A DNA stretch of 63,959 nt, the filler included, from Bonamia ostreae (taxonomy: Eukaryota): the NCBI GenBank assembly GCA_040357525.1. It is 38 parts of 38 records of this genome, joined end to end, with 100 filler letters (N's around TTAATTAATTAA, not from the genome) between each part and the next. Parts side by side here need not be neighbours in the genome. Positions count along the whole stretch, not along the records: positions 25,423 to 27,008 come from JBDODL010001586.1; 37 more parts are not named here. One strand, 5' to 3'. How positions within the stretch are numbered: the first letter of the stretch is position 1; every line of letters begins with the position of its first letter. The translations under genes and the position numbers were made by a program. Of the stretch, positions 1,127-50,146 are shown one piece after another. Below the pieces are notes generated by a model. The model was not told where the DNA came from and ran no database searches. It saw only the letters and a program-made list of their open reading frames with translations.

Positions 1127-1569
1127 TCAGGGCTCACTTCCTTTGCCTTCTTTGAGTCCGTATTGTCTTTTTAGCTCGTTAATGGCTTCTCTCTGTTTTT
1201 TGAGCGCTTCAGACTTCTCCAGTCGCTCTTTCTTAAAGTAAACCAGGACGAGATATCTTCCCTGAATGGAATATCCTTGCAGCGCCTCTAATGCGCTTTT
1301 GGCGTCAAACAAATCCTCGTAGACGACATAGGCCGTTCCTCTCGATTCGTTTGTGCTTCCCCTTTAAATTTAGGTGAGATTTCTAAGCCAAATTTTTCTT
1401 TTTGAGAATGGCGATGAAGCTCATTTATTGGATAGGTAAAAATGGGAAACATCCTAATTTGCCTAATGGCGCCATATTTTCCGAAAATCGAATAAAGTTC
1501 TTGTCCGGTAACTTTGAACGGAAGATTTTTAGCGTAAAGAATGCGATTTACTTCGGGCGGGATTTTCAT
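1127..1569 (-). CDS. SF3B6: U2 snRNP SF3b p14 subunit (RRM), one 89-nt intron 1362-1450
   Basis: [52 protein letters not shown] matches p14. Confidence 0.95.
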
Positions 1570-1603
1570 CTTTCGTTAATCTTAAAAACATTTGGTCTGT
1601 GGG

Positions 1604-3688: not shown

Positions 3689-4700
3689 ATGATAATTCTG
3701 TTTGCGCCATTTTTCTTCTTTCCACATTTTTCAAAACAAAATTTTGACAATCCGTTCACCGCCGATTATTTTGACGAGAAAGTCGTCGTTAGACCACTTT
3801 CTGATGGCCGTGTTATTACTCATTTCGATTTTTTTATATCGAGCGATCTCAAAAACGGCCAAAGTTCCAAAAACATAAAATTTCCAAAGTCGGAAATTTC
3901 CTATTTCCGAAAAGCATTCGCCAAATAATTGAAAAAACGGATGTGCGCCACCTCGAGCTCTCCTTCGCACAAGGAAGTTGGGATGGCTATTTTGGGGAGG
4001 AGTTCGCGCCATCTCAGAACGGCCTCGAACTGGAAGCCGATTTCGAAGACGGAGAAGAAGTGGAGAAAAGATGGAAAGAGCTTCTAGACGCGTTCTCGGG
4101 AAATTTTTGCGGCTCTTTCAAAGATTCGCATATAAAAAAATTTCGGACTTTTACGCCAATAAACGAAAAGTTTAAAAGAGTTGAAATCGTTCCAAACGAA
4201 CCGTTTTGTGTAGAAAATTTGAGCGCTTTTTTGGATTTGTTGCCTTGTCGCGCTCACGTTAAAATTTAGCTTTGGCTAAATTATTATTTTTATTTTTTAA
4301 GGCGGGAATGGCTTCTCTGTTGAATCAAGTGAGTTCGTTCGATTCAGATTATATTTCCGCAAAACTGATCGCGGACAAAAATTGCAGCGAAAGCGGCTGC
4401 AATGTTTTTATAAAAATGGAAAATTTTAATAAAAGTTGAAAATGGAAATTTTGATAACGATCGCAAAATTTTTTAAAAAGAAAATCGGAAAATCAAATTT
4501 GTTCAAAATGAGCGATTTGTTCGATCGAAATTACAAAAATTGCGTTTTATCGAAAAACAGAAAAATTGTGTTCGAAGCGCTTTCTTCCGTCGATTTTTTC
4601 GAATTCTTTGAAGACGACAATGTTTTTTTCGATTTTTTTTTAATTTGGTTTATTTGCTAAATTAAAATAAGATTATTTTTGATGTGAAAGAGATCGATAA
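3689..4700 (+). CDS. PIGT: GPI transamidase subunit PIG-T/Gpi16, 5' part, spliced; 3' limit approximate
   Basis: Signal peptide; FDEKVVVRPLSDGRVITHFDF; LFPKSIRQIIE..LELSFAQGSW; EPFCVENL..LLPCRAH|AGMASLL; introns 3864-3889 and 4258-4301. Confidence 0.9.
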
Positions 4701-4749
4701 CAAGACAAAAATGTTTTTTGAGATAATCCGAAAAAATTTAATAATAAAA

Positions 4750-5004
4750 ATTCGAAAAAAAACAAAATTTTAATAAAAACAAAAAAAATTATAAAAAATC
4801 GAAAAAAAAACAATATTTTAATAAAAATCGAACAAAAACAATATTTTAATAAAAACAAAAAAAATTATAAAAAATCGAAAAAAACAATATTTTAATAAAA
4901 ATCGAACAAAAACAATATTTTAATAAAAATCGAACAAAAACAATATTTAAATAAAAACAAAAAAAATTATAAAAAATCGAAAAAAAAACAATATTTTAAT
5001 AAAA
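4750..5004. repeat. AT-rich imperfect tandem repeat (AACAATATTTTAATAAAAA... units)
   Basis: Visible repeated units running to the contig end. Confidence 0.85.
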
Positions 5005-6803: not shown

Positions 6804-7025
6804 AACAAAATTTTTATATTTGACAACTTTTTTGTTCATTTTTAAATCAAAATTTTTATATTTGACAATTTTTTGTCTTTTTTAAATCAAAATTTTTATA
6901 TTTGACAATTTTTTGTCCATTTTTAAAATCAAAATTTTTATAATTGACAACTTTTTTTGTCTTTTTTAAAACAAAATTTTTATATTTGACAACTTTTTTG
7001 TTCATTTTTAAATCAAAATTTTTAA
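6804..7025. repeat. About 41-bp AT-rich minisatellite (AAATCAAAATTTTTATATTTGACAACTTTTTTG...)
   Basis: About five imperfect tandem copies. Confidence 0.85.
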
Positions 7026-8400
7026 AACTTTGGCGGAAAATTGTAATAAGAATCGTTTTGATTTTGCTGAACGTTTCCATTTTCTTCAATAATTTCGTCG
7101 TTTTCTTTATCGTTCTCATTTTCACAAACTGTTTTTTCGTTTTCCTTTTCATCATTTTCGCTATACATTTTTTCAACCTTTTCTCCGATCTTCTCTTCGT
7201 CCAAATTTAGATTTTTGTCTAATTTCTTCATCTTTTCATCTTTTTTGTCATTTTCTATTTTTTCTTTTTTGTTTATATGTTCTTGTCCATTTTCAGCAAA
7301 ATTTCCCTTTTCGTTTTTGGCAAAATTGCCATTATCTTGAAAATCATCGTTCTCCTCCATTTTGCCGTTCGAACGTGTCGCGTTGTTTGAATTCTCGATA
7401 TAAAATTTTTTGAGATGATCTTTTACGACGTAAATAAAAATCAAGTCGTTTTTTAAAATTGAATTTATCGATTGGTTATCTTTTTTGAATCGATATCCTC
7501 TTTTCTCGTAAATTTCTGTGATCACCTTTTTTGAACACAATTTTTTGTTTTGATCGATTTTTTTAATTTTGACAGATTTTTGACCATTTTTTAATTTTCG
7601 ATATATTTTTTAATTTTTGATCGATTTTTGACCATTTTTTAATTTTCGATCGATTTTTGACCATTTTTTTAATTTTCGATCGATTTTTTAATTTTTGACC
7701 ATTTTTTTTATATTTTGACAGATTTTTGACCATTTTTTTAATTTTTGATCGATTTTTGACTATTTTTTTTATTTTCGATCGATTTTATAAATTTTTGACC
7801 ATTTTTTTATACAAAATTTTCAATCAAAAACGATATCATTTTCATCACAATTCAACATTTTGCACACTTTCATTCTAACGTCTCTGATCGTCCCAAACCT
7901 ATGCAACTCCAAAACCATTCTGATGCACCTCTTTGACTTGCTCCCAGGCACCAGCGTCACCGGCAGCATCCTCGTTTCGCTCGAAAACATCGGCAAACTC
8001 AGCGCCAAAAACGGGTCGAACATCTCCGACACGAAATCGCACGACGGACAGACCAACGTCGACTTGATTTGGCCCTGGAAATGGTCCACGATGATCGACC
8101 GATTTCGCTTCAAATGAGTGTCCCAAGCTTCTCTCGCGACAACTTTGTCGCAACGGCCATTTTGTTCGATGTTTTCGGTGAACGGTTTTTGCTTGACGAG
8201 GTTGAGATCTTCGTGGAGGCCGTCGAGTAGGAAGAAGAGCAGTTCGGAAGAGTCTTGTTGGTTGTAGCCGGAGAAGCGAGGGGCGAATTGTCCGATGCAA
8301 AGTTTGAGGTCGGAAGGAGAGACAACGCCGGTTTCGCCGGACCACATTTTGCGCATAAGAGCGCCGTAGTTTTCGGCGATTTTGCCCTTTTTTTTAAGAA
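7022..8400 (-). CDS. Ubiquitin-specific protease (USP4/11/15-like), internal fragment
   Basis: FAPRFSGYNQQDSSELLFFLLDGLHEDLN..RNRSIIVDHFQGQIKSTLVCPSC..FDPFLALSLP; the downstream exon 7022-7540 is tentative. Confidence 0.9.
7545..7815. repeat. Intronic minisatellite (GATCGATTTTTGACCATTTTTTAATTTT units)
   Basis: Repeated units between the two USP coding blocks. Confidence 0.8.
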
Positions 8401-11893: not shown

Positions 11894-12639
11894 AAGGGGA
11901 GAATTCCTGTTAACACGAGCGTTTTAGACACGTCTTGCAGAATCCCGGCGATCATTCTAATGCACGAATACTGGGGACCGGAGAACATTCTAAACCAGGC
12001 AACTGAATGGTTTTGCCCAAAGAAGTTTAAATTAGCAGATTTAAGTTACAACCTTTTGGTCCCCGATTTGTACCGCGGAAATCTGGTGGAAGACTTTAAA
12101 CGATCCCAAAATTACATTCTCACCACAAAACCGGACGTGATGGGCGCAATGGAAGATGTGAAATCTACCGTAAAATTCGCTAAAGATAAACTAAAAGCGA
12201 CTAAAGTCGGTATTGTTGGACTAAGCATGGGCGGCGTTTTAAAACATCATTTTTGCAAAAGGCTCTGGCGATGTGCGCTGGTTTGCACGTAGAGGGAATA
12301 GAGTGCGCAGTTTCATTTTACGGAATAATCCCGGATCGGTTGGCTCTGTTAAAAGATGTCAAAATTCCAATGCAATATCATTTTGGCGATAAAGACGCGT
12401 TGAGAGGGTTCACCACTCCAAAAGTTTAAATTTTACCATTTTCTGTTTTCCAAAAGGAGGTGAATTTGCTAAAAGAAAAATTGGAAAAGTGGAACAATTC
12501 GAATCACGAGATTTTCATGTACGAAAATGCAAGACATTCTTTTGCAAACGAGTCCACTTCGGAAAGTTACAACGACAAAGTAACACAAATTGCAAAATCC
12601 AACATGTTCCCTTTCCTGGAAAGACACCTCAAAACTTAA
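11894..12639 (+). CDS. Dienelactone hydrolase family protein, spliced (introns 12236-12261 and about 12424-12456)
   Basis: HEYWG, LVPDLYRG, GIVGLSMGG|ALA, VSFYG, HFGDKD, YENARHSFANE. Confidence 0.88.
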
Positions 12640-15283: not shown

Positions 15284-16402
15284 ACGTGCTGACGACCAAA
15301 ATCGCGCCTTTGTTGCAGAAAGTTAAAAATTTTATGTTGTGCGAGATGGAACAGAATTTCAGGTACAGTTTCCCGAGCCGCGACCTCATCTCGTCGATCT
15401 CGTTCACCTGCTCGTTCTCGATGTCGGCCGTCACCAGCATTATCGCGAACTTCATGTCGAACACGCTGACTAAACGTTGATGCAAAAACAGATCAGGAAT
15501 TCGGTCATCACGATGAACGTGAACGCGCTGAACATGCTCTCTGCGGTTACTGGTCAAAACGGTATGTGACGCCCACGAACACGTGCACCATTATGATGAA
15601 GGAGTCGTTCACGCCGAAGAACATGAACGTGTAGAAGCTTAGCTTCGAAGTGCGCGCGGTTGTGTTCGAATAGCCAATTTGTCGGAACAGAAGGTAGATC
15701 TGCGCAAAGTTGACGAGTATCGTCAGAACGATGTACTCGTTGGCCTGTCTGGAGAAGTCCTCGAAGCCCAGTATCGAGCCGCTGATGCTGAGCTGTTGGT
15801 TAGAGGTTGCAACGTTGGAAAAGTTCTCGGGGCACTTGTCGACTATGAAGCTGTTGCCCGTCACGACGACGTCGGTCCTCTTCGACAAAGAGCCGTTTTG
15901 CACTAGGTTCGGGAATTTTACCTCGGAAGAACAGTTCGAACCTGTAGTTGCAGAAGACGGCGGGGTAGTGAGTCGCCAGTCCAGAGCTCCCGAAGCCGTA
16001 AAAGTTTCTAAAATTACAGTCGGAAACAGCACTTCGAACCGGTTCGGCGGGCTGATGTTGTCCCAGACGAACTTCTTGTCCGTGAAAAGAAGCGCCTTGT
16101 CGCCGCTCAGCCAGCCGTAAGTGTCCAGACCGAGATTCTCGACGATCGACCCTCTCAGGATGACGGCGCGGCCCTGGCTTAGTTGCGGACAGAACCTTGA
16201 AGTAGCGCACTCCGGAAACTGCCTTCGAGTGGAAACTCAAAATTATCTTGCCCGTTTTCCCGGGGCGGTCCAAGTCTTCGAAGCGTCCGAAGTAATTCTT
16301 GTCGTGGTAATGGCCTTTGCTCGCCTTTACGTGAAAAACTCGAACCGCCGAGTTCACCGTTATTGCTAGCGCTATGAGCCAAATTGAAGCGATTCTTGCC
16401 AT
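15284..16402 (-). CDS. Tul1/FLY-type transmembrane RING E3 ligase, 5' part; introns 16174-16195, 15541-15560, 15470-15489
   Basis: Signal peptide; QIYLLFRQIGYSNTTARTSKLS..D; FLIF|SVFDMKF restored by splicing. Confidence 0.75.
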
Positions 16403-20258: not shown

Positions 20259-20470
20259 NNNNNNNNNNNNNNNNNNNNNNNNNNNNNNNNNNNNNNNNNN
20301 NNTTAATTAATTAANNNNNNNNNNNNNNNNNNNNNNNNNNNNNNNNNNNNNNNNNNNNTAAAACGACATATCTTCGAAAACAAACGTCCCACAAAACACG
20401 AAAATTAAAGTGGTGACGAAAAATATTTTTACAAAAATAATCAAAATGATGAGCGACGACGATAAAACAC

Positions 20471-21230
20471 CAGTTCCGGGCGGGCCATAGAGCAAAACGC
20501 CCTTCGGAGGGTCGATCCCGAGATTGACGAAACGGTCGCTGTGCAATAGCGGCAATTCGACCACTTCTCTCAGTTTCTTGATTTGCTCTTTGCAACCGCC
20601 CACGTCGTCGTAGGTCACATCCGGCTTCTCTTCCACCGTCATCATTGTCACCTGCGGGTCGATTTTCATGGGAAGAGGAATTTGGATCTGCAATTTGGTT
20701 CGGTCCACTCTGCTCTTTTATCCGAAAATTACCCGACGCGCATTCCTTCTTCGATATCCGTCGGCGAAACGCGGTTCCCCAGTTCGACCACATATTTTCC
20801 GATGTGCGTCATGCTGACGACGTACTTCGCTTTGGGCGACTGCGAGTCGATGATTTTGGTGCAGCGCGCGACTTGCAACGGCTGCTCTTTCTGAAGCAGA
20901 TTTCTGTCGGATGTCAAGTCCCAGAGGTTTGGTTGGGACAGTCCGGTGTCGGATTCTTTGACTCCTTTTGTTTCGCTGATGTTTTGGGACAGTTCTTTGA
21001 GCTCTTTCTTTAATTTGGGAAATTGCAAATTTGTAAATTTTTTGTGTTTTGTTAAATTTTTGGTTTAGCACTTCCAGTTTTTTGATGCTTTCGGAGTACA
21101 TTCCTCTGTTGTAAAGTCGAAGAAGTTCGATGTCCCTTTCGTTTAAAAGGTTTTGAATTCCGTCTTCATCTTTTTCCGATTTTGTTTTTTCGTTTTCAGG
21201 TTTTTTGTTGTCTGTTTTGTTGTCAACCAT
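20471..21230 (-). CDS. PSMC2: 26S proteasome AAA-ATPase Rpt1, 5' part; introns about 21009-21071 and 20710-20732
   Basis: [64 protein letters not shown]. Confidence 0.97.
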
Positions 21231-22404: not shown

Positions 22405-22476
22405 GCGTTGGTGATCTAGTGGTTATGATTTCAAGTTCCCATCTTGGCCACCCGGGTTCGAATCCCGGCCTTCGCA
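22405..22476 (+). tRNA. tRNA-Gly(CCC) with two U-U mismatches in the acceptor stem
   Basis: GCGTTGG..TCAAG TTCCCAT CTTGG..CCGGG TTCGAAT CCCGG CCTTCGCA, followed by a TTTTT Pol III terminator. Confidence 0.88.
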
Positions 22477-23963: not shown

Positions 23964-26466
23964 TTTTATTATATAGATATCCTACAATGCACCTATACTT
24001 TTCGATTAAATAATATAGAAACTACATTTTCAGTTGAACACAGTGCATTGATTTTTGTCATTGTGACGTCACGTCTTGCGAGTGAAATATGAATTATATT
24101 TCACTAGTGAAATATCAAATATATTTAACTGATATATTTCATCGTCATCTATATAATAAATTGTAATATTTATAAGCAAACCAGGTATTTCTTACTAATA
24201 TTGGGCAATCTATATACATGCAGAGAAAATCGAACTTTCAATGTCAAACACTGTTTATTCATTACCATACATGTGTTTATAACTAAACAGTGATTTATAA
24301 ATGGCCATTTACAACCAATTATCGATTCAACTGTAAACTTGCGTTTGTTGTATTGTAATTACATGTACATGTATATTATAAGATGTATGGCACCTCATAT
24401 TAAAATAGTAATTACGGATCACTGCATTTCATACTAATTATTCGTGCACATTTTTTACAAATCTTCAAAATTTAAGTTATTTCAACAGAAAAAATCTTCA
24501 AAATTTATGTCTTCTGATTTTCTGGATTCTCTTCTGTAAAAGTTTATACTCTTCCCACTTAACTAAAAGTGGATCTGTTGCATGAAGTTGTTCCCAAGAA
24601 ACTGATTTAGATGACTTCACAGAGAAATTGCTTGCAGATGATTGTTCATTTGAAACATGAAATGGTGATTCAATTGTTGTTTGACTCCCAGCATCACTAA
24701 ATGTTAAACTACTGCTTTGGTCTGATAAAGTGTTTTCATGTATTTCTGGTTTCTTGTCATTATTTAAATGTTTATCAACAGAAAGACTTGATTTATCTTG
24801 TTTTGCTTCTCTTTTTTTCATTTTTTGGGCTGCTCTTCTTCTTTTTTCATATTCTCTTCTTTTAGTTATCTTGTGCTTGCCCATGATACTGAAAATACAT
24901 GTACATGTTGCGTATCTTCTAGATTAACTATATTATTCCATTTATATGTCAAGTTGTCTAAAAAAAATTGTGTGTGTTGAGATGTTCTATTATATTATTG
25001 ATTATAAATGTCAAACCGTTTAATGTACTAAATGTGTCTGAACAAATTTGGTTGTATTTAATATGTCATATATACAATGTACATGTCTATGTACATACAT
25101 GTTTAATAGTCCGCCTCTGTTTGTGTAGTCTTTAAAAAAATTGTAGAGAACTTGGTATAATTTGTTTATAAGCATGGGTGTTCCTTTTAGTTCTATTCAC
25201 AGCTGTTAACTGGCCACCCAAAATTTTAAATAATGCAGTTAGTAAGAGACCCGTGTGAATTAACTTGCAAAGCAAGTCTTGCTTAAAGGCATAGGCATTT
25301 GTTTCTCCCTATCGTCTGCTTANNNNNNNNNNNNNNNNNNNNNNNNNNNNNNNNNNNNNNNNNNNNTTAATTAATTAANNNNNNNNNNNNNNNNNNNNNN
25401 NNNNNNNNNNNNNNNNNNNNNNAACGAGATGGTTTAAGCGAACGTTCACAAACCTTAAAGATCATCAAATTTACTAATTCTTTATAATTTTGTTCATTGA
25501 TATAGTCAAAAAAAATATGTGCTAAAATGAGGGTTATTTTTTAATACTTTAAAGGTAACATTGGAAAATCTAACATTCCAATTTTCAAAGTGACACATAA
25601 AGTCATCTTTTGTGATATATTTAGGCACGGGTGGATCACAAATATTCTTAACAAAAGCCTTTTCAAATCAACTCTAGTATTTTTGCTTTTAAGCATGTCA
25701 TCCATAGAGTTGAATTGCACGCGAATATCCCCGTAGGGGGGAGTAATTCGTCATTAACAGCTAATTTGATATAACATTTTATAAATTAAAAAAAGAATTT
25801 AATATTTTATTATTTTTTGTGTTTTTAATTTTATGATCACTAATATTTGAAACTTTATGCATGGGATCAGTGTTCGATATTTCGGGAATGACCTCGGAAG
25901 AAGTTTTTTCTTAATATTTCCTTTTGTTATGATTTTTTTTGCAATCATAACCTTTTTTGAAGGATTTTAATATATCGATCAATCTTTAGTTTTAGATCAC
26001 AATTTTTTAATACATCCGGCAGAGGAGGGAATGGCGGATGGCTTTCCGTTTCAAATCGGTTAATGATTTTTTTAAAGAATTGTCCATGTTTCAATTAATA
26101 TATTATTTTAAATAATTTCCAAAGTCAAATTTATCTCAAAAATCAGAAATACTCGCGAAGGATAAATTTACATTATTTACCTGTGAAGAAGTATTTAAAA
26201 ACGAAAATAGATGGCCTAAAATAATCTAAATATAAACAAATATTAATTTATCGTTATCGAAAATAAGAATTTGAAATCAAGGATACAAATAAAGCGAGCG
26301 GATATTCTCCAAAAATGCTTCTGGTCTTGGATTCTGAAAATAAAAATGCTACACTGCTAAAATGACTATGGCTTAGATGAAAATATTCTTTTAGTATTGA
26401 AATCTTCTTTTGGCATTTCCTGAGATTCAATTTCCAATTTAGACAGCATTTTTACAACGCATTTTA

Positions 26467-27008
26467 TTAGCCGTAACATTTAATGCAAGTATCTTCACCT
26501 TTCTTCGCGGATTGTCCTTTCTTTTCCAGATATTTCTGATGATAATCTTCTGCCAACCAAAATTTATTCATTTTTTTTACTTCTGTAACAACTGGTTTCC
26601 TATAGCTTTTGCTGATTTTCTCGATAATGCCTTTAATTTCTGTTTTCTGCTCTTTATTCCTGTAAAATGCGATGCTTCGATATTGACTTCCGATATCGTT
26701 TTTTTGGCGGTTTAGAGTAGTTGGATCATGTAACTCGAAAAACAACTCGCAAAGCTCTGCAAAGCTAACTACTTCCGAATCAAAAACTACCTTTTGGTTA
26801 GTTATTGAACGTTGACGCATTCCGAATGACCGCTATTCCCCGAACAAACCTCTTCGTAGGTCGGATTCGTCGTTTCTCCACCGGAATCTGGATATTTTAA
26901 GTAAACATCCTACTTCAGTACTCAAAACTCCAGGAATTCGTTGAAACTGAAGTTCTAGTCCCCAAAAGCACTTTAATAATAAATTAAATAACTCCTCCAG
27001 CGAAAGTA
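26467..27008 (-). CDS. msrA: Peptide methionine sulfoxide reductase A; introns 26971-26992, 26888-26906, 26791-26810
   Basis: Spliced: TFAGG|CFWGLE..TEVGY|SGG..NPTYEEVCSGNSGHSECVN|VVFD..HDPTTLNRQ..QYRS..AEDYHQKY. Confidence 0.97.
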
Positions 27009-31107: not shown

Positions 31108-31828
31108 ATGAGCTATTCAAATTTGTCGACAAAGTTATATAAACATATTTAAGAGATAAAGACGACGCAATAACATCCACAAAAAACGACGAAAAGAAAG
31201 ACGAAAAAAACGACGAAAATGACAAAATTGCCCAAAACCTCAAAAACAGCGAAAAAACGAAAAATGAAAAAAATGAAAACGACAAATCAAAAACTGAACC
31301 AGAAAAAATAGCCCTCATCCAGAAAAACGAAAACGATTCTTCCCAAAACAAACGTTCACATTTTTTAAATTCAACGTTGCCCTTTCGACTATTTTTTTCA
31401 AATAAATTCGTCATTTTGCGTCAAAATTCATTTCATCTCCAATTAAATTTTTCCGGAGTTTTCGCTGTTGCAGCCAAAATATATGCAAATGACAAATCAT
31501 AAAGAACCGACTAAAATTGCAAACGACAAAATAACGATAAACGCGATAATGGTCGGCCAAAAATTCGAATCGATTTCGATTAGCCCAAAAAGTTCTGTTT
31601 TAGACCTGAAAAATGAATTCGCGAAAGAAAAGAAGGAAGACTTAAAAAGTCTTTCAGTGATTTATATGGGACGCTTTCTCAAAGACGAAGATTCGCTCGT
31701 CGAATCAAATATTGTAAACGGAGCCAGTGTCCATATAATGAAAGCCAGAAAAACCGCAAATCAGACGAACGAAGAAGAAAATAATAATACGGAAAGTGCC
31801 GATATTGAAAACGCTATTAACTCGATTG
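31108..31828 (+). CDS. Ubiquitin-like domain protein with charged N-terminus, partial; first intron 31134-31153
   Basis: SVLDLKNEF..LSVIYMGRFLKDEDSLVESNIVNGASVHIM. Confidence 0.8.
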
Positions 31829-32163: not shown

Positions 32164-33745
32164 CAATAATATAATAAATGTATATGAAAAAGCATATGAT
32201 ACTTTTAAATCTAAAAGTAATATGATCATAGTTTTTTTTGACTTGGAAAAAGCTTATGATACTGTGGATCGTAAATTGTTATATAAAATACTTAAAAACA
32301 TAGGAATTAATAACCAATTATTAATATATTTCAAAAATTTTCTCAATTCCAGATACGCAATTGTTAATTATAATAATTCTTTCTCAGATAAAAAGTGTTT
32401 TAATTATGGACTACCGCAAGGTAGTCCTTTGTCGCCAATTCTATTTAATATATATATTAACAGCGTAATAAATAAAATTGAAAATGTCAATGTAAGGGCT
32501 TTTGCTGATGATATATATGTATATTCTAAGAATAAAAACATTGATGTCTTACACTCTGATATGACTAAAGCTATAAAAATATTAGTAAACAGAACCAATA
32601 CCTTAAATTTAAAATTTTCAAATTTAAAAACAAAGGCAATGTTATTCACAAATAAAAATAAATCTGTTAAAAAATTAAAATTGTATGATAAATCTATTGA
32701 ATACGTAGATAATATGAAATATTTGGGTATACAATTTGACAATAGACTTAAATTCGATACTCATTTAAATTTCATACTAAAAAAAGCAAGAAAACGTTTA
32801 TATATTTTAAAATATTTAGCAAATGGAATTCATGGTTCAAAAAAAAGTATTTTAATAAACTGTTATAAATCATTTGTTAGATCTGTGATTGATTATTCAT
32901 TTCCAATTTTTTTATCATTAACAAAATCACGCCTTAAGAAACTTGAAAGTTTTCAGCATACAGCATTATGCTACTTATTGTCAATAAATAAAAGATCTAG
33001 TTATTTATGTTTACTACATTCAATTAATTTACTATCTATTGAAAAAAGAAATATTAAATTACTGTATAAATATGAAATAATGTATAAATTAGAGAAACCA
33101 AAATATAAACAGTCTGAAACATTTTATAGTAAAATTTCGCCCTTAACAACGATGGCAAATAAAATAAATCTATTCAAAAACAAACTCAATAAAATACAAA
33201 ACAATAAAACAAAAAATGAATTAATTAAAATTCAATTTGAAGAGTTGAAAAATAAATATATACAATGCAATGAAAACATTAAATTTTCAATAAATATATT
33301 TAATTATTTTGAAAATAAAAATACTAAAATCTATAACAAAATTAAATGTCTCGGCAACAGGGCATTTACAAATATATTAAAAATATATTGTGGATGTTTA
33401 GAATTAAACTATTTTCTATTTAAAATGAAAATTAGTAAAATAGATACATGTGATACATGTAAAACTAAGGAAACAGTAAAACATTGCCTATTTTACTGTA
33501 GGAAGCATAAAAATATTCGAAAAAATATTTTAAATTCAATTAAAGTAAAAAATATAAACTCACAAAAAAAGTTGTTATTTGACACAAAAAACCTTATACT
33601 TCTGAGCAAATTTGCAGAGTGCGCAATAATAAGGAAATAAAATAATCTAAAATTAAAAAAAATAAATATATATAAAAAAAAATATATATAATAAAAAAAA
33701 TTTTTTTTTACAACGAAAAAAAAAAATTATATATAAAAATAATTT
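32164..33745 (+). mobile_element. Non-LTR retrotransposon (LINE) ORF2 3' half: RT plus C-terminal CCHC finger and A-rich tail
   Basis: FFDLEKAYDTV, GLPQGSPLSPILF, AFADD, KYLGIQFD, CDTCKTKETVKHCLFYC; ORF uninterrupted to the stop at 33640. Confidence 0.95.
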
Positions 33746-33935: not shown

Positions 33936-34397
33936 TCAAACATTGAAAGCGCATTCGTCAAATCGCTTTTCAATGACGGTGTAAATATCGTACATGGCCA
34001 AAACGATGATTCCTGGCCCACCTCGGCTATTCCCGATCATCGTGTGGGTCTTGCCCGATCCAGTCGCCCCATAAGCGAAAATGGTCGCATTATAGCCATT
34101 CAAAGCGTCGATTACAGCCGATTTGGCCATTTTGTCGTAGACCGTTTTAGTCGAATCTTCGGGCGAGAAAACACAGTCGAAGGCGTAGTGCTGGTTTTTC
34201 TTGCGTCGCTTTCCGATCGATCCTAAAGGACGGGAAGTGTCTCCAATGTCGAAATTGACTATTTGTTTGTGTGCTATGTCGACGGTCGATTTTGTCTCTT
34301 TGGAACCGCTTAAAAATGGCTTCACTCTGATTTTGTTGAAAGTAAGCAATTATTGTAAGAACCTCACAGCAACTGAAATGGAATATTTATTAGACAT
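33936..34397 (-). CDS. Kinesin-8 (KIF18/19-like) motor N-terminus; intron about 34327-34362
   Basis: ISVAVR|VKP, YAFDCVF, GYNATIFAYGATGSGKTHTM. Confidence 0.9.
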
Positions 34398-34618
34398 TTT
34401 GATAATATCGAATATAATTATACGTGTTTCGACTATAAAATTAAAGCTGCTTTGGCTAAAATTGTTATATGGAATTTTTATAATCATTGCACAATCGTTT
34501 GTTGCAAATATGGTCGATTCGGAGCAACAAACAGTAAAACGAACCATTCTTTTTAAAATTATAAGCTCGTCATGACTAAACTTTTTTATAGAATTTCAAT
34601 AAAAAACATTTCTAAATT

Positions 34619-35116
34619 ATGTTCTTTCTGCTCCGCCATTCTCCAAAAACTTTAGATTGCCACCATATCTTCTTTAAAACCTTTTCCGTCGTTGCACACC
34701 GTCCAAAACGTTACAGAGTAAAGAGACACCACAACACTCCCGCCAGTCTCAGCACAACTCTGCGAAACGCTTACAAAAGAAAATTGGCATTGGCTTATTT
34801 CCCCAATTCCAACTTGGCTTGCGGCATCCTCGACGTCCTGATCAACGAAGGGTACATTAACGGCTTCCGGCTACAACCCGAATTAAAAAGACTGACCATT
34901 TATCTTAAATACAGTGGTCATTCCGGGTTGGCCGCGGTACAGGAAATCACCACTGTATCGAAACCAAGCAATCGTGTTTTCAAGAAAGCACATCAAATTC
35001 GACCGTTTATGAACGGTCTCGGAATATATGTCGTAAAGACGATTAGAGGCGTCAAATCCTGCAAAGAATGTTGGGAGAAAAATATTGGCGGAGAAGTGAT
35101 GTTCTCTGTCTTTTAG
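34619..35116 (+). CDS. rps8: Nucleus-encoded mitochondrial ribosomal protein uS8m with basic N-terminal extension
   Basis: STTLRNAY..ILDVLINEGYINGF..IYLKY..VSKPSNRVF..GLGIYVVKTIRGV..NIGGEVMFSVF is bacterial-type S8. Confidence 0.92.
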   Translation: MFFLLRHSPKTLDCHHIFFKTFSVVAHRPKRYRVKRHHNTPASLSTTLRNAYKRKLALAYFPNSNLACGILDVLINEGYINGFRLQPELKRLTIYLKYSGHSGLAAVQEITTVSKPSNRVFKKAHQIRPFMNGLGIYVVKTIRGVKSCKECWEKNIGGEVMFSVF

Positions 35117-37304: not shown

Positions 37305-37726
37305 AACCTAGTCCATTTTCATAAGCACAAGATACCAAAAAATGAGAATACAACCCCGTTTTATCGATCCAGAAAACGCCATTTTCTTGAATTCCTTTAT
37401 CGCTCACGGGAAATTCTTTTACAAAGACGCTGGTTCTGTTTTCTTTGGTTAAAATTGCATCCGAACAAGAAATGTTTTCATTTATCTAAAGGTTTATTCA
37501 AAACGTCTTCTTTTAGTCCAGCGACAAAATAAATTGGATAATCTTCTACTGTTGAAACAGAAATGTAATAACTAAAAGCAGCCCGCGTTTTTCCATTGCT
37601 GTCATCGTTGCTATAGACAGTTTCATATTCAAATGCCCTTGGCAATCCTGTAACTATTTCATTCAATTTGTATTTCAGAGAGTTTATTGCTTTTAAGCTC
37701 AATAGAATTATGAGAAGCTTAAACAT
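37305..37726 (-). CDS. Signal-peptide protein, possibly a GOST/TMEM87-like lumenal domain; 19-nt intron 37486-37504
   Basis: MFKLLIILLSLKAINS..LKED|INENISC..FWIDKTGLYSHFLVSC. Confidence 0.5.
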
Positions 37727-38119: not shown

Positions 38120-38793
38120 TGAGCGTCCCTCAGGCCACAACGGGTCGCTCGCCGTTACTGAGGGAATCCTTGTTAGTATCTTCTCCTCCGCTTAGTTATA
38201 TGCTTAAATTCAGCGGGTCACCTTACTTCACTTGAGACTTTTGTCGATCTGCGAGACTACTTGGCTGGGCGCCGCACGGACACGTTCGTACTTTCATAAA
38301 TGGATTCAAAAAAATATATGCGTTCTTCATTGTTGCGAGAGCCTAGTCATCCATTGCAAAGACGGTTGTCGGGAGTTTTGCAGCGCTGTCACTGTCGCTG
38401 CATTTGTGTTGCCAAGCTGTAACCAGAGTATGTACAAAACGTTGGTTCGCGGTTGAATTTATTTGTGCAATAAAATGTGGTAATGATCCTTCCACAGGTT
38501 CACTAACGGAAACATTGTTACGATTTTTCCTTCCTCTAAACAACAAGGTTCACGAAGCTTCTAAGAACGCGGAGCGCTCTTATCCACCTAATTCACCTCA
38601 TTATTCAATCGGTTGAAGCGACGGGCGGTGGGTACACTGGGCAGGGACGTAAGCAATGCAAGTTGTGGTCGTGCGGTTACTAGATATTCCTTGGTCACGA
38701 GGAACACTTGCCCTCCTCTATCCCCACTTGGGTGCGCGGTGAAGATTACCCGGCCTTGTCAAGCCGGGTCAAACTCGTTGAACGCACCATTGT
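38120..38793 (-). pseudogene. rDNA pseudogene: 18S 3' end (38481-38793), ITS1, truncated 5.8S (about 38319-38369), ITS2 remnant, 28S 5' fragment (about 38120-38238)
   Basis: GAACCTGTGGAAGGATCATTA, GGATGACTAGGCTC..ATGAAGAACGCA and ACCCGCTGAATTTAAGCATAT are present, but universally conserved sites are mutated and segments are missing. Confidence 0.88.
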
Positions 38794-48970: not shown

Positions 48971-50146
48971 TAGTTTCCAAAACTCTGGGATTGTCCAGTT
49001 TACCCCAGCACAAATTCGGAAACCCCCTTTTAACAGGATTTTCTCCCTCTCTAAAATAATCCTTTTGGCTATTCGCAGTGTCGAAGATAAAGTAGCCAAG
49101 AATATTTAACAAGAAAATCACAAAAAGGTACAACTTGCTTTGCCCTTCAATCCCGGCACTGTAGATATACAAAGTCTGTAGCGGGAACACAAAAGGCACC
49201 ATGACGATATCTAACATCAATAGCATCCAGCCAAACTTTTCCTCGATAATATCAAACGAGTTAATGACGCACTGCTCTCCCTTGAAGCAAGCATTAACAA
49301 AGCAGAGATGGAAAAAACAGATCAAAACGATTTCGGTTGTAACAGTTCCCCGTTCCTCAAGCATTTTTAAGGCTATTCCAATGTCGGTAAACCACCACAT
49401 CATTATCCCCGGGCGCAGTTCGAAAAAGAACTTTATGTCAAAGCCGGAACTCGCTCCGGGGTTCAAAGCCTTCCCCTTTTAAAGAAATAATTTTATAAAT
49501 CAAAATATTTGATAATAGCGACAACAATTAAGACGATAATAACCATGAAGAGATTTTGAACAAAATTGGAATTGTCGTTATTGTTAAAATTCACATTAAC
49601 AAGGATTATCACGATAAAAGAAACAAAGTTAGCTGTTGTAAGATATTGCCCAAATCTATCGCAAAGTTCTGTAAGTTTGAAAATCTAAGCAATATTGAAA
49701 ATGACTTTTGTAAAAAATCGGGATAACTAAGAAACTTGCAAATAATGAAAAATAACGGCGAAGATATTTGTAACAACAAAAGCTCTTTGTCCATTGAAGC
49801 AATATTTAATTTGTTTTCCGTCTTTAAGAGGCTTTCCTAATTGTTCTTCGCCCGGCAATGATTTGAACAAAATGGCTTGGAACAAAATCCAAGTCAAATA
49901 AGTTTGAACGGTCCTTAGAGAAGGCAAAGTTCCAATAATAATTTTTGTCAAGTTACTTAACCAAAATAAAATTGATTTTACTGAAAGTGGGTTCGGTAGC
50001 AATAGTTGGCCTTTGTAAATTTGCAAATGCAAAAATTTACCTTTGTTGAAAGCAACGCATATCCAACTCCAATAAATAAAGAAGGGGATAACAAAAAAAG
50101 CGAAGCACATTAAAGTGGTGTTGCTCTTTTTTATAAATATCGACAT
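48971..50146 (-). CDS. ERG4/ERG24-family sterol reductase, closest in motif to ERG4; spliced and 3'-truncated
   Basis: LFM|GKALNP, FDIKFFFELRPG, NACFKGEQCV..DIIEEKFGWML, FDTANSQK. Confidence 0.9.

Follow-up and report, generated by a model that had tools for sequence, protein, structure and literature searches.

We conclude with high confidence that the haplosporidian Bonamia ostreae carries genuine GT..AG spliceosomal introns whose lengths peak at approximately 19–23 nt, with a tiny class of 19–26 nt and a tail of 33–89 nt and longer within the same genes. The reading as spliceosomal mini-introns is well supported, and two of their features are worth following, namely the broad range of lengths found in single genes and an unusual GTT 5′ splice site. 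The spliceosomal reading follows from the GT..AG ends of the segments, from their placement between residues that are adjacent in homologous proteins, and from the absence of two tiny segments and one 87-nt segment from the contigs of a public sequencing run, here called X1. In the manner of U2-type introns, the segments interrupt coding sequence without a counterpart in homologues, and their removal restores the reading frame in msrA, Rpt1, Tul1 and SF3B6.

The window analysed is a stretch of 63,959 nucleotides, filler included, from assembly GCA_040357525.1, with a G+C content of about 32%. It consists of 38 contigs of 1573–1603 bases placed in order of descending length and separated by spacers of the form N44-TTAATTAATTAA-N44 (for example at 1604–1703). 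Because the window is built of such short contigs, genes are cut at contig ends. Three extra runs of 10 N also lie inside contigs (9660, 27784 and 40157). Pfam searches were run on stop-to-stop translated pieces of the window contigs, and no match was obtained for any of the 150 open reading frames of 40–49 residues that were scanned (from a total of 217 such frames).

The msrA gene fragment occupies 26467–27008 on the minus strand of the contig at 25423–27008, its 5′ end being lost at the contig end. Its exons (26993–27008, 26907–26970, 26811–26887 and 26470–26790, followed by a stop codon at 26467–26469) are separated by three tiny introns on the same strand. Intron 1 (26971–26992; 22 nt, GTT..AAG) falls at the AGG/CFWG boundary, and a match to positions 7–28 of the Pfam PMSR profile starts just after it. 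Intron 2 (26888–26906; 19 nt, GTT..CAG) interrupts the VGY/SGG motif within its Tyr codon, and intron 3 (26791–26810; 20 nt, GTT..AAG), which holds the sequence CTAAC, lies at the ECVN/VVFD boundary. When the exons are joined in silico, they form a single open frame that terminates in TAA TAA, from which it follows that TAA is a stop codon in this organism. The joined product aligns without gaps at all three joints with nine MsrA homologues, and the PMSR matches on the separate pieces are consecutive (7–28, 30–56 and 54–150) even though they lie in three different reading frames. The closest named homologues are oomycete MsrA proteins (50–57% identity). At 100% identity the protein collection contains just one product, a single-exon piece of 117 residues without the catalytic GCFWG part. 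The original prediction had proposed GT..AG introns of 22, 19 and 20 nt in this gene; all three are present, and the range it gave (26791–26992) is exactly the span that they occupy.

Among the public runs listed for the region, none is on record as RNA. The one that contains it, X1, consists of contigs, and its label, ‘RNA?’, is a guess; contigs of this kind cannot show levels of intron retention. The comparison covers the msrA contig (25423–27008) alone, and the direct evidence that it provides concerns 2 of the 15 tiny introns described here. Record 8 of X1 (399 letters) aligns to 26538..26970 with no mismatches and with two deletions, one of 20 letters at 26789 and one of 19 letters at 26888, which after left-alignment are the segments 26791–26810 and 26888–26906. 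The same record ends at 26970, the first exon base past the 22-nt msrA segment. A second X1 contig (depth 96.5, with 30 letters on the shorter side of the joint) skips 25903–25989, an 87-nt GT..AG intron on the plus strand of an unnamed gene, and so joins 25902 to 25990. GT..AG ends were not imposed on these deletions and are nevertheless found on all three, one of which is ambiguous by 2 nt. X1 covers the coding part of msrA and has no coverage of 26112–26535 between the genes. We read X1 as probably derived from cDNA.

Protein homology also confirms introns in Rpt1 (26S proteasome subunit 7), which is encoded on the minus strand. The exon pieces around a 23-nt intron (20710–20732, GTA..CAG) match residues 43–133 and 135–211 of the solved structure 8amz_H, and the split codon between them is residue 134. 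A longer intron of 64 nt (21008–21071, GTG..AAG) precedes the exon 2 piece that begins at residue 43 of the same structure. With both introns removed, the Rpt1 product is gapless at its joints relative to nine homologues. A third Rpt1 intron begins at 20470 and leaves the contig, and is thus at least 112 nt long. The spliced product was not found at 100% identity in a protein search, the nearest entry being P0133, with 94% identity across the 77-residue query and 77% across a longer stretch of 217 residues.

For the Tul1-like E3 ligase on the minus strand, an exhaustive HMMER search identified P0245 and P0246 as full-length relatives. Against both of them the joined product shows no gaps across introns of 22 nt (16174–16195, GTT..CAG), 20 nt (15541–15560, GTT..CAG, in a conserved membrane region), 20 nt (15470–15489, GTT..TAG) and 45 nt (15308–15352, GTT..AAG). 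The alignment with P0245 runs across the last of these, which was not among the introns predicted originally. Two further introns are probable on the basis of local homology, one of 20 nt (16008–16027, GTT..TAG) and one of 19 nt (15903–15921, GTA..TAG). Excising both eliminates an insertion of about 13 residues relative to P0245 and matches a local motif, while overall identity is unchanged. None of the small Tul1 exons matches a Pfam profile. P0246 and P0137, a relative of Rpt1, are UniRef entries filed under the amphipod Hirondellea gigas. Animals would not be expected to possess a Tul1/DSC-type ligase, and these two sequences may come from a protist in the Hirondellea gigas sample.

Pfam profile coordinates support additional introns of both size ranges. 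In PIG-T (Gpi16) on the plus strand, a 26-nt intron (3864–3889, GTT..AAG) lies between matches to Gpi16 positions 14–57 and 46–188, whose coordinates agree within about eight positions across the joint, and its removal restores the frame. A 44-nt intron in the same gene (4258–4301, GTT..AAG) separates positions 46–188 from 179–228. The dienelactone hydrolase (DLH) gene, also on the plus strand, has a 26-nt intron (12236–12261, GTT..AAG) between DLH positions 10–113 and 110–156, which are contiguous across a joint where the frame is again restored, and a 33-nt intron (12424–12456, GTT..AAG) between positions 110–156 and 157–216. The latter is a multiple of three with an in-frame stop inside it, and its flanks are in the same frame. 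In a CHD gene on the minus strand, an 82-nt intron (83–164, GTT..TAG) separates positions 2–61 and 62–91 of the SNF2-rel_dom profile. The longest complete intron that could be defined (1362–1450; 89 nt, GTT..AAG) interrupts the SF3B6/p14 gene (1130–1575, minus strand), whose exon pieces match residues 11–49 and 51–120 of structure 2f9d_A across it. The original prediction had listed the 23-nt Rpt1 segment, the 22-, 20- and 20-nt Tul1 segments, and the 26-nt segments of PIG-T and DLH as introns, and all of these are upheld by, respectively, contiguous residue numbering on 8amz_H, the P0245 and P0246 alignments, and Pfam coordinates.

Longer candidate introns include a 36-nt segment in a kinesin gene (34327–34362, minus strand; GTT..CAG), directly after which the kinesin profile begins, and two in an ERG24-family gene on the minus strand (49476–49543, 68 nt; 49685–49735, 51 nt). 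The exons that flank this pair match positions 32–129 and 189–335 of ERG4_ERG24, and the middle exon has no Pfam match. A further four tiny candidates are identified by open frames only. Two are in CHD on the minus strand, where a 20-nt segment (503–522, GTT..CAG) leads from the chromodomain exon to a linker exon and a 22-nt segment (362–383, GTT..CAG) leads on into the SNF2 exon. The third (31134–31153, plus strand; 20 nt, GTT..AAG) follows a frame of just 15 codons. The fourth (37486–37504, minus strand; 19 nt, GTT..TAG) links open frames of 109 and 64 codons, neither of which yields a Pfam match.

Rather little can be concluded from open frames by themselves. We scanned the window for short segments of 17–30 nt that link two open frames, taking each of the 256 possible end-dinucleotide pairs in turn, with frame-length thresholds of 25, 40 and 60 codons; a broader scan of 15–60 nt at a threshold of 40 codons did not single out GT..AG either. 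GT..AG segments were not enriched (151 of 3402, or 4.4%, versus 3.3% overall), and among the 256 pairs GT..AG ranked 7th at 25 codons, 33rd at 40 and 19th at 60. Since GT..AG does not stand out in DNA this rich in AT, continuity of an open frame is by itself a weak argument, and we have ranked the four candidates of this kind lowest. The scan is uninformative and is not evidence against introns.

It is therefore appropriate to ask whether the introns are real but narrower in distribution than originally predicted, which was that they occur throughout the genes, with chance accounting for some or all of the candidates that have open frames only. Short segments that bridge two frames are common in AT-rich DNA whatever their end dinucleotides, and the frame upstream of 31134 has only 15 codons. 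The CHD linker exon gave no meaningful match to solved structures, and no homology spans the CHD joint at 362–383, although the open frames do continue across the candidates. Moreover, tiny introns backed by homology or Pfam were found in 5 of the approximately 19 Pfam-anchored genes. However, all four candidates share with the confirmed set a length of 19–22 nt and a GTT start, and the chromodomain and SNF2 exons of CHD need to be joined across stops somehow. We consider chance fits among these four unlikely, though by no means negligible.

Explanations that would do away with splicing altogether fare much worse. X1 might be DNA, since its label is a guess, and the joined form of msrA would then exist as DNA. 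The X1 contig would come from a variant strain or from a gene copy free of introns, and what we read as introns would be small insertions that the assembled copy carries. This is very improbable, given that X1 covers the msrA coding part and leaves the 26112–26535 interval uncovered, and that the 87-nt GT..AG joint is also present in X1. Furthermore, there would have to be seven tiny insertions in three unrelated genes, all of them GT..AG and each falling precisely at the junction of two residues that are neighbours in homologues, and the assembled copies of all those genes would be broken. Even more improbable is that the segments reflect assembly or sequencing errors, or frameshifting insertions in decaying pseudogenes. 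The assembly is indeed in many small fragments, its contigs measuring about 1.6 kb, but errors would not yield AT-rich GT..AG inserts of 19–26 nt at exact codon-level joints. Likewise, the exons are otherwise undamaged, and no stop interrupts the joined frames of msrA, Rpt1 and Tul1. Spliceosomal removal of these segments thus remains the reading that we adopt.

The curated set comprises 25 introns, 15 of them tiny (19–26 nt) and 10 longer (33–89 nt), and is a small sample gathered from frame breaks. Nine of the tiny introns are supported by X1 (putative RNA), homology or Pfam, two by weak local homology, and four by open frames only. Nine of the 15 are 19 or 20 nt long. The longer members measure 33, 36, 44, 45, 51, 64, 68, 82, 87 and 89 nt, in addition to the one of at least 112 nt. 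With 15 of the 25 introns at 30 nt or below, the set belongs with ultra-short systems. It is not a fixed-length system, in which all introns would fall within a span of 1–4 nt, and here the original prediction proved correct. Longer introns are present in the same genes as tiny ones, which means that length is not fixed: Rpt1 combines introns of 64, 23 and at least 112 nt, Tul1 has 22, 20, 20 and 45 nt, and CHD has 20, 22 and 82 nt. The original prediction had put the longer introns at 60–300 nt. Their presence beside tiny introns is confirmed for complete introns of up to 89 nt and the one of at least 112 nt, and the upper figure of 300 nt was not reached. The distribution looks like a peak at 19–23 nt with a tail rather than two separate classes.

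In nearly all eukaryotes, position +3 of the 5′ splice site is a purine. Among the curated introns, 22 of 25 start with GTT. When the count is restricted to the tiers backed by X1, homology or Pfam, the proportion is 14 of 16, to be compared with a base rate of 0.42 for GTT among all GT in the window (binomial P = 2.4e-4). All 25 introns have GT..AG ends, but beyond the three defined by X1 this was the selection rule, and the figure is true by construction for the other 22. No base is preferred at the last exon position, and the 3′ AG is preceded by A, C or T. A short motif, AA[C/G/T] with its second A at −6 to −10, is present in 11 of the 15 tiny introns versus 657 of 1962 GT..AG segments of the same length (33.5%; P = 0.002), although it was defined after seeing the data and so provides only a lead to the branch site. 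Lengths that are multiples of three do not occur among the 15 tiny introns, but the search relied on frame breaks and would therefore miss introns that are stopless multiples of three.

A single spliceosome probably removes both tiny and longer introns and defines the intron as the unit of recognition. The signals that it would need are minimal, comprising GUU at the 5′ end, an A-rich, branch-like element about 6–10 nt before the 3′ end, and the 3′ AG, and on the exon side no consensus would be used. Such a spliceosome may be adapted to tiny introns, as the original prediction held. A wider proposal, which we put forward tentatively and to which we would give slightly less than an even chance, is that one spliceosome operates over a continuous range from 19 to more than 100 nt, that U at position +3 of the GUU signal entails altered U1 or U6 pairing, that the Haplosporida are intermediate on the way to the fixed 16–17-nt introns of mikrocytids, and that published gene counts and ‘missing’ conserved genes for this species are in part artefacts of mis-spliced models. 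At about 20 nt, introns are among the shortest known and are hard to reconcile with the accepted geometry of the spliceosome, and most known cases are near-fixed in length. The existence in one lineage of introns of 19 and 89 nt, with little signal beyond GTT...AG, offers a useful natural test of how short introns are recognized.

The most closely related precedent is that of the mikrocytids Mikrocytos mackini and Paramikrocytos canceri (Ascetosporea), whose introns are all 16 or 17 nt (217 and 7, respectively, of 224), few in number and highly conserved in sequence, and are served by a spliceosome of 17–19 proteins (PMC10245619). B. ostreae resembles them in being a rhizarian parasite of the same class whose spliceosomal introns lie at the extreme short end (PMC10245619). 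Unlike the mikrocytid introns, those of Bonamia measure 19–26 nt as well as 33–89 nt and longer, and are variable beyond GTT. Bonamia also retains the gene for SF3B6/p14, a spliceosomal branch-site protein, which suggests that its spliceosome is less reduced than that reported for mikrocytids.

Similar comparisons can be made with more distant systems. Nucleomorph introns of Bigelowiella natans are 18–21 nt long and have GT..AG ends. In Paramecium, introns begin with GTA, and stopless introns whose length is a multiple of three are depleted. The ciliates Paramecium and Nyctotherus carry many introns in each gene, and their lengths form a narrow peak with a mean of about 25 nt (10.1101/2021.08.05.455221, PMC5014332); the introns of Stentor coeruleus are 15–16 nt (PMC13644364). 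Bonamia shares tiny introns with Paramecium and Nyctotherus, but those ciliates have only ultra-short introns and a variant code, whereas Bonamia has longer introns and uses TAA as a stop. Likewise, it shares ultra-short GT..AG introns with the Bigelowiella nucleomorph and with Stentor, but intron lengths in those systems are near-fixed and in Bonamia they are not. Internal eliminated sequences of the ciliate type do not fit, since the segments end in GT..AG and not in TA, TAA is a stop codon, and the host is a haplosporidian.

Myxobolid myxozoans and the dicyemid Dicyema japonicum provide a further parallel. These animals are described as having introns with a median of 22–27 nt, longer introns alongside, and a 5′ signal of ‘GTa’ (PMC13644364). 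Bonamia is like them in its reduced splice signals and in the A residues of weak conservation that lie upstream of the 3′ AG (PMC13644364), and unlike them in being a protist and in having GTT in 22 of 25 introns. The original prediction named chlorarachniophyte nucleomorphs, ciliates, microsporidia and Mikrocytos as tiny-intron lineages, a list that omits the myxobolids and dicyemids (PMC13644364). We weighed an origin of the window in a myxozoan or dicyemid and set it aside, given the different 5′ signal (PMC13644364), the gene for a mitochondrial-type ribosomal protein S8 in the window, and the species name attached to a protein from one of its contigs.

Published data for B. ostreae itself are sparse on this subject. 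The species and the paramyxids are stated to ‘carry canonical introns’, with a mean of two introns per mRNA in B. ostreae (PMC11069148), and the papers that we found give no intron lengths for it. Four text files among its supplements do not use the word ‘intron’ at all, and other supplements to that paper might hold intron statistics. A 2026 paper describes Ascetosporea, in general terms, as having drastically reduced numbers and sizes of introns (PMC13746701), and neither ‘intron’ nor ‘splic’ occurs in the B. ostreae transcriptome paper. A comparison with published Ascetosporea intron data had been proposed originally as the way to judge novelty, and the guess of Ascetosporea agrees with the species name. 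In the literature that we found, there is no description of 19–26-nt introns or of a GTT 5′ signal in Bonamia, although subscription journals or supplements could hold one. Our findings add a haplosporidian to a class in which the literature found documents only mikrocytids.

The practical consequences are illustrated by P0244, an NCBI hypothetical protein of Bonamia ostreae that was built from the Tul1 contig (15284–16877, minus strand). When mapped back, this model contains predicted gaps of 21, 22, 20 and 24 nt. It uses the true 22-nt intron (16174–16195), and its 20-nt gap is the joint at 16008–16027 that we consider probable. After that gap, P0244 continues in a frame without homology. 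Beyond residue 111 it has departed from the conserved frame, and it recognizes neither of the 20-nt introns that fall in the conserved membrane region (15541–15560 and 15470–15489). The model also predicts a 21-nt stopless candidate intron at 16325–16345 (minus strand). Existing Bonamia gene models therefore mishandle tiny introns in part. Views on which genes this commercially important oyster pathogen has lost are based on models of this kind, and they could change if the genome were annotated anew with tiny introns permitted.

Several other elements were encountered in the window. The only tRNA is a tRNA-Gly (anticodon CCC) at 22405–22476 on the plus strand, and no snRNA scored above Rfam thresholds within the window. 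A truncated rDNA unit on the minus strand (38138–38793) contains the 3′ end of the SSU rRNA (38481–38793), a weak 5.8S match (38288–38365) and large-subunit positions 24–103 only (38138–38217), and the sequence becomes AT-rich from about 38120. Past this unit is the open frame with the 19-nt candidate intron, and a further large-subunit match is absent; a conserved large-subunit rRNA primer motif was likewise not found in the window. The contig could be chimeric, or could carry a broken rDNA copy or an insertion. A gene for a bacterial-type ribosomal protein S8 (34616–35113, plus strand) matches Pfam positions 6–126 of 126 and has a basic N-terminal extension of 44 residues, and is probably a nuclear gene whose product serves in the mitochondrial ribosome. 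Near msrA, X1 contigs match 25529–26111 at only 90–99% identity, with loose ends and on both strands, which suggests that a repeated or multi-copy element adjoins the gene. Close to the PIG-T and UCH genes, 4722–5003 and 6804–7784 contain long Lys- and Asn-rich repetitive frames, several of them overlapping, that look like low-complexity, AT-rich repeat DNA. Finally, the most AT-rich contig (20% G+C) carries an open frame of 491 residues in which a reverse transcriptase domain is recognized (32165–33637, plus strand), which is probably a retroelement.
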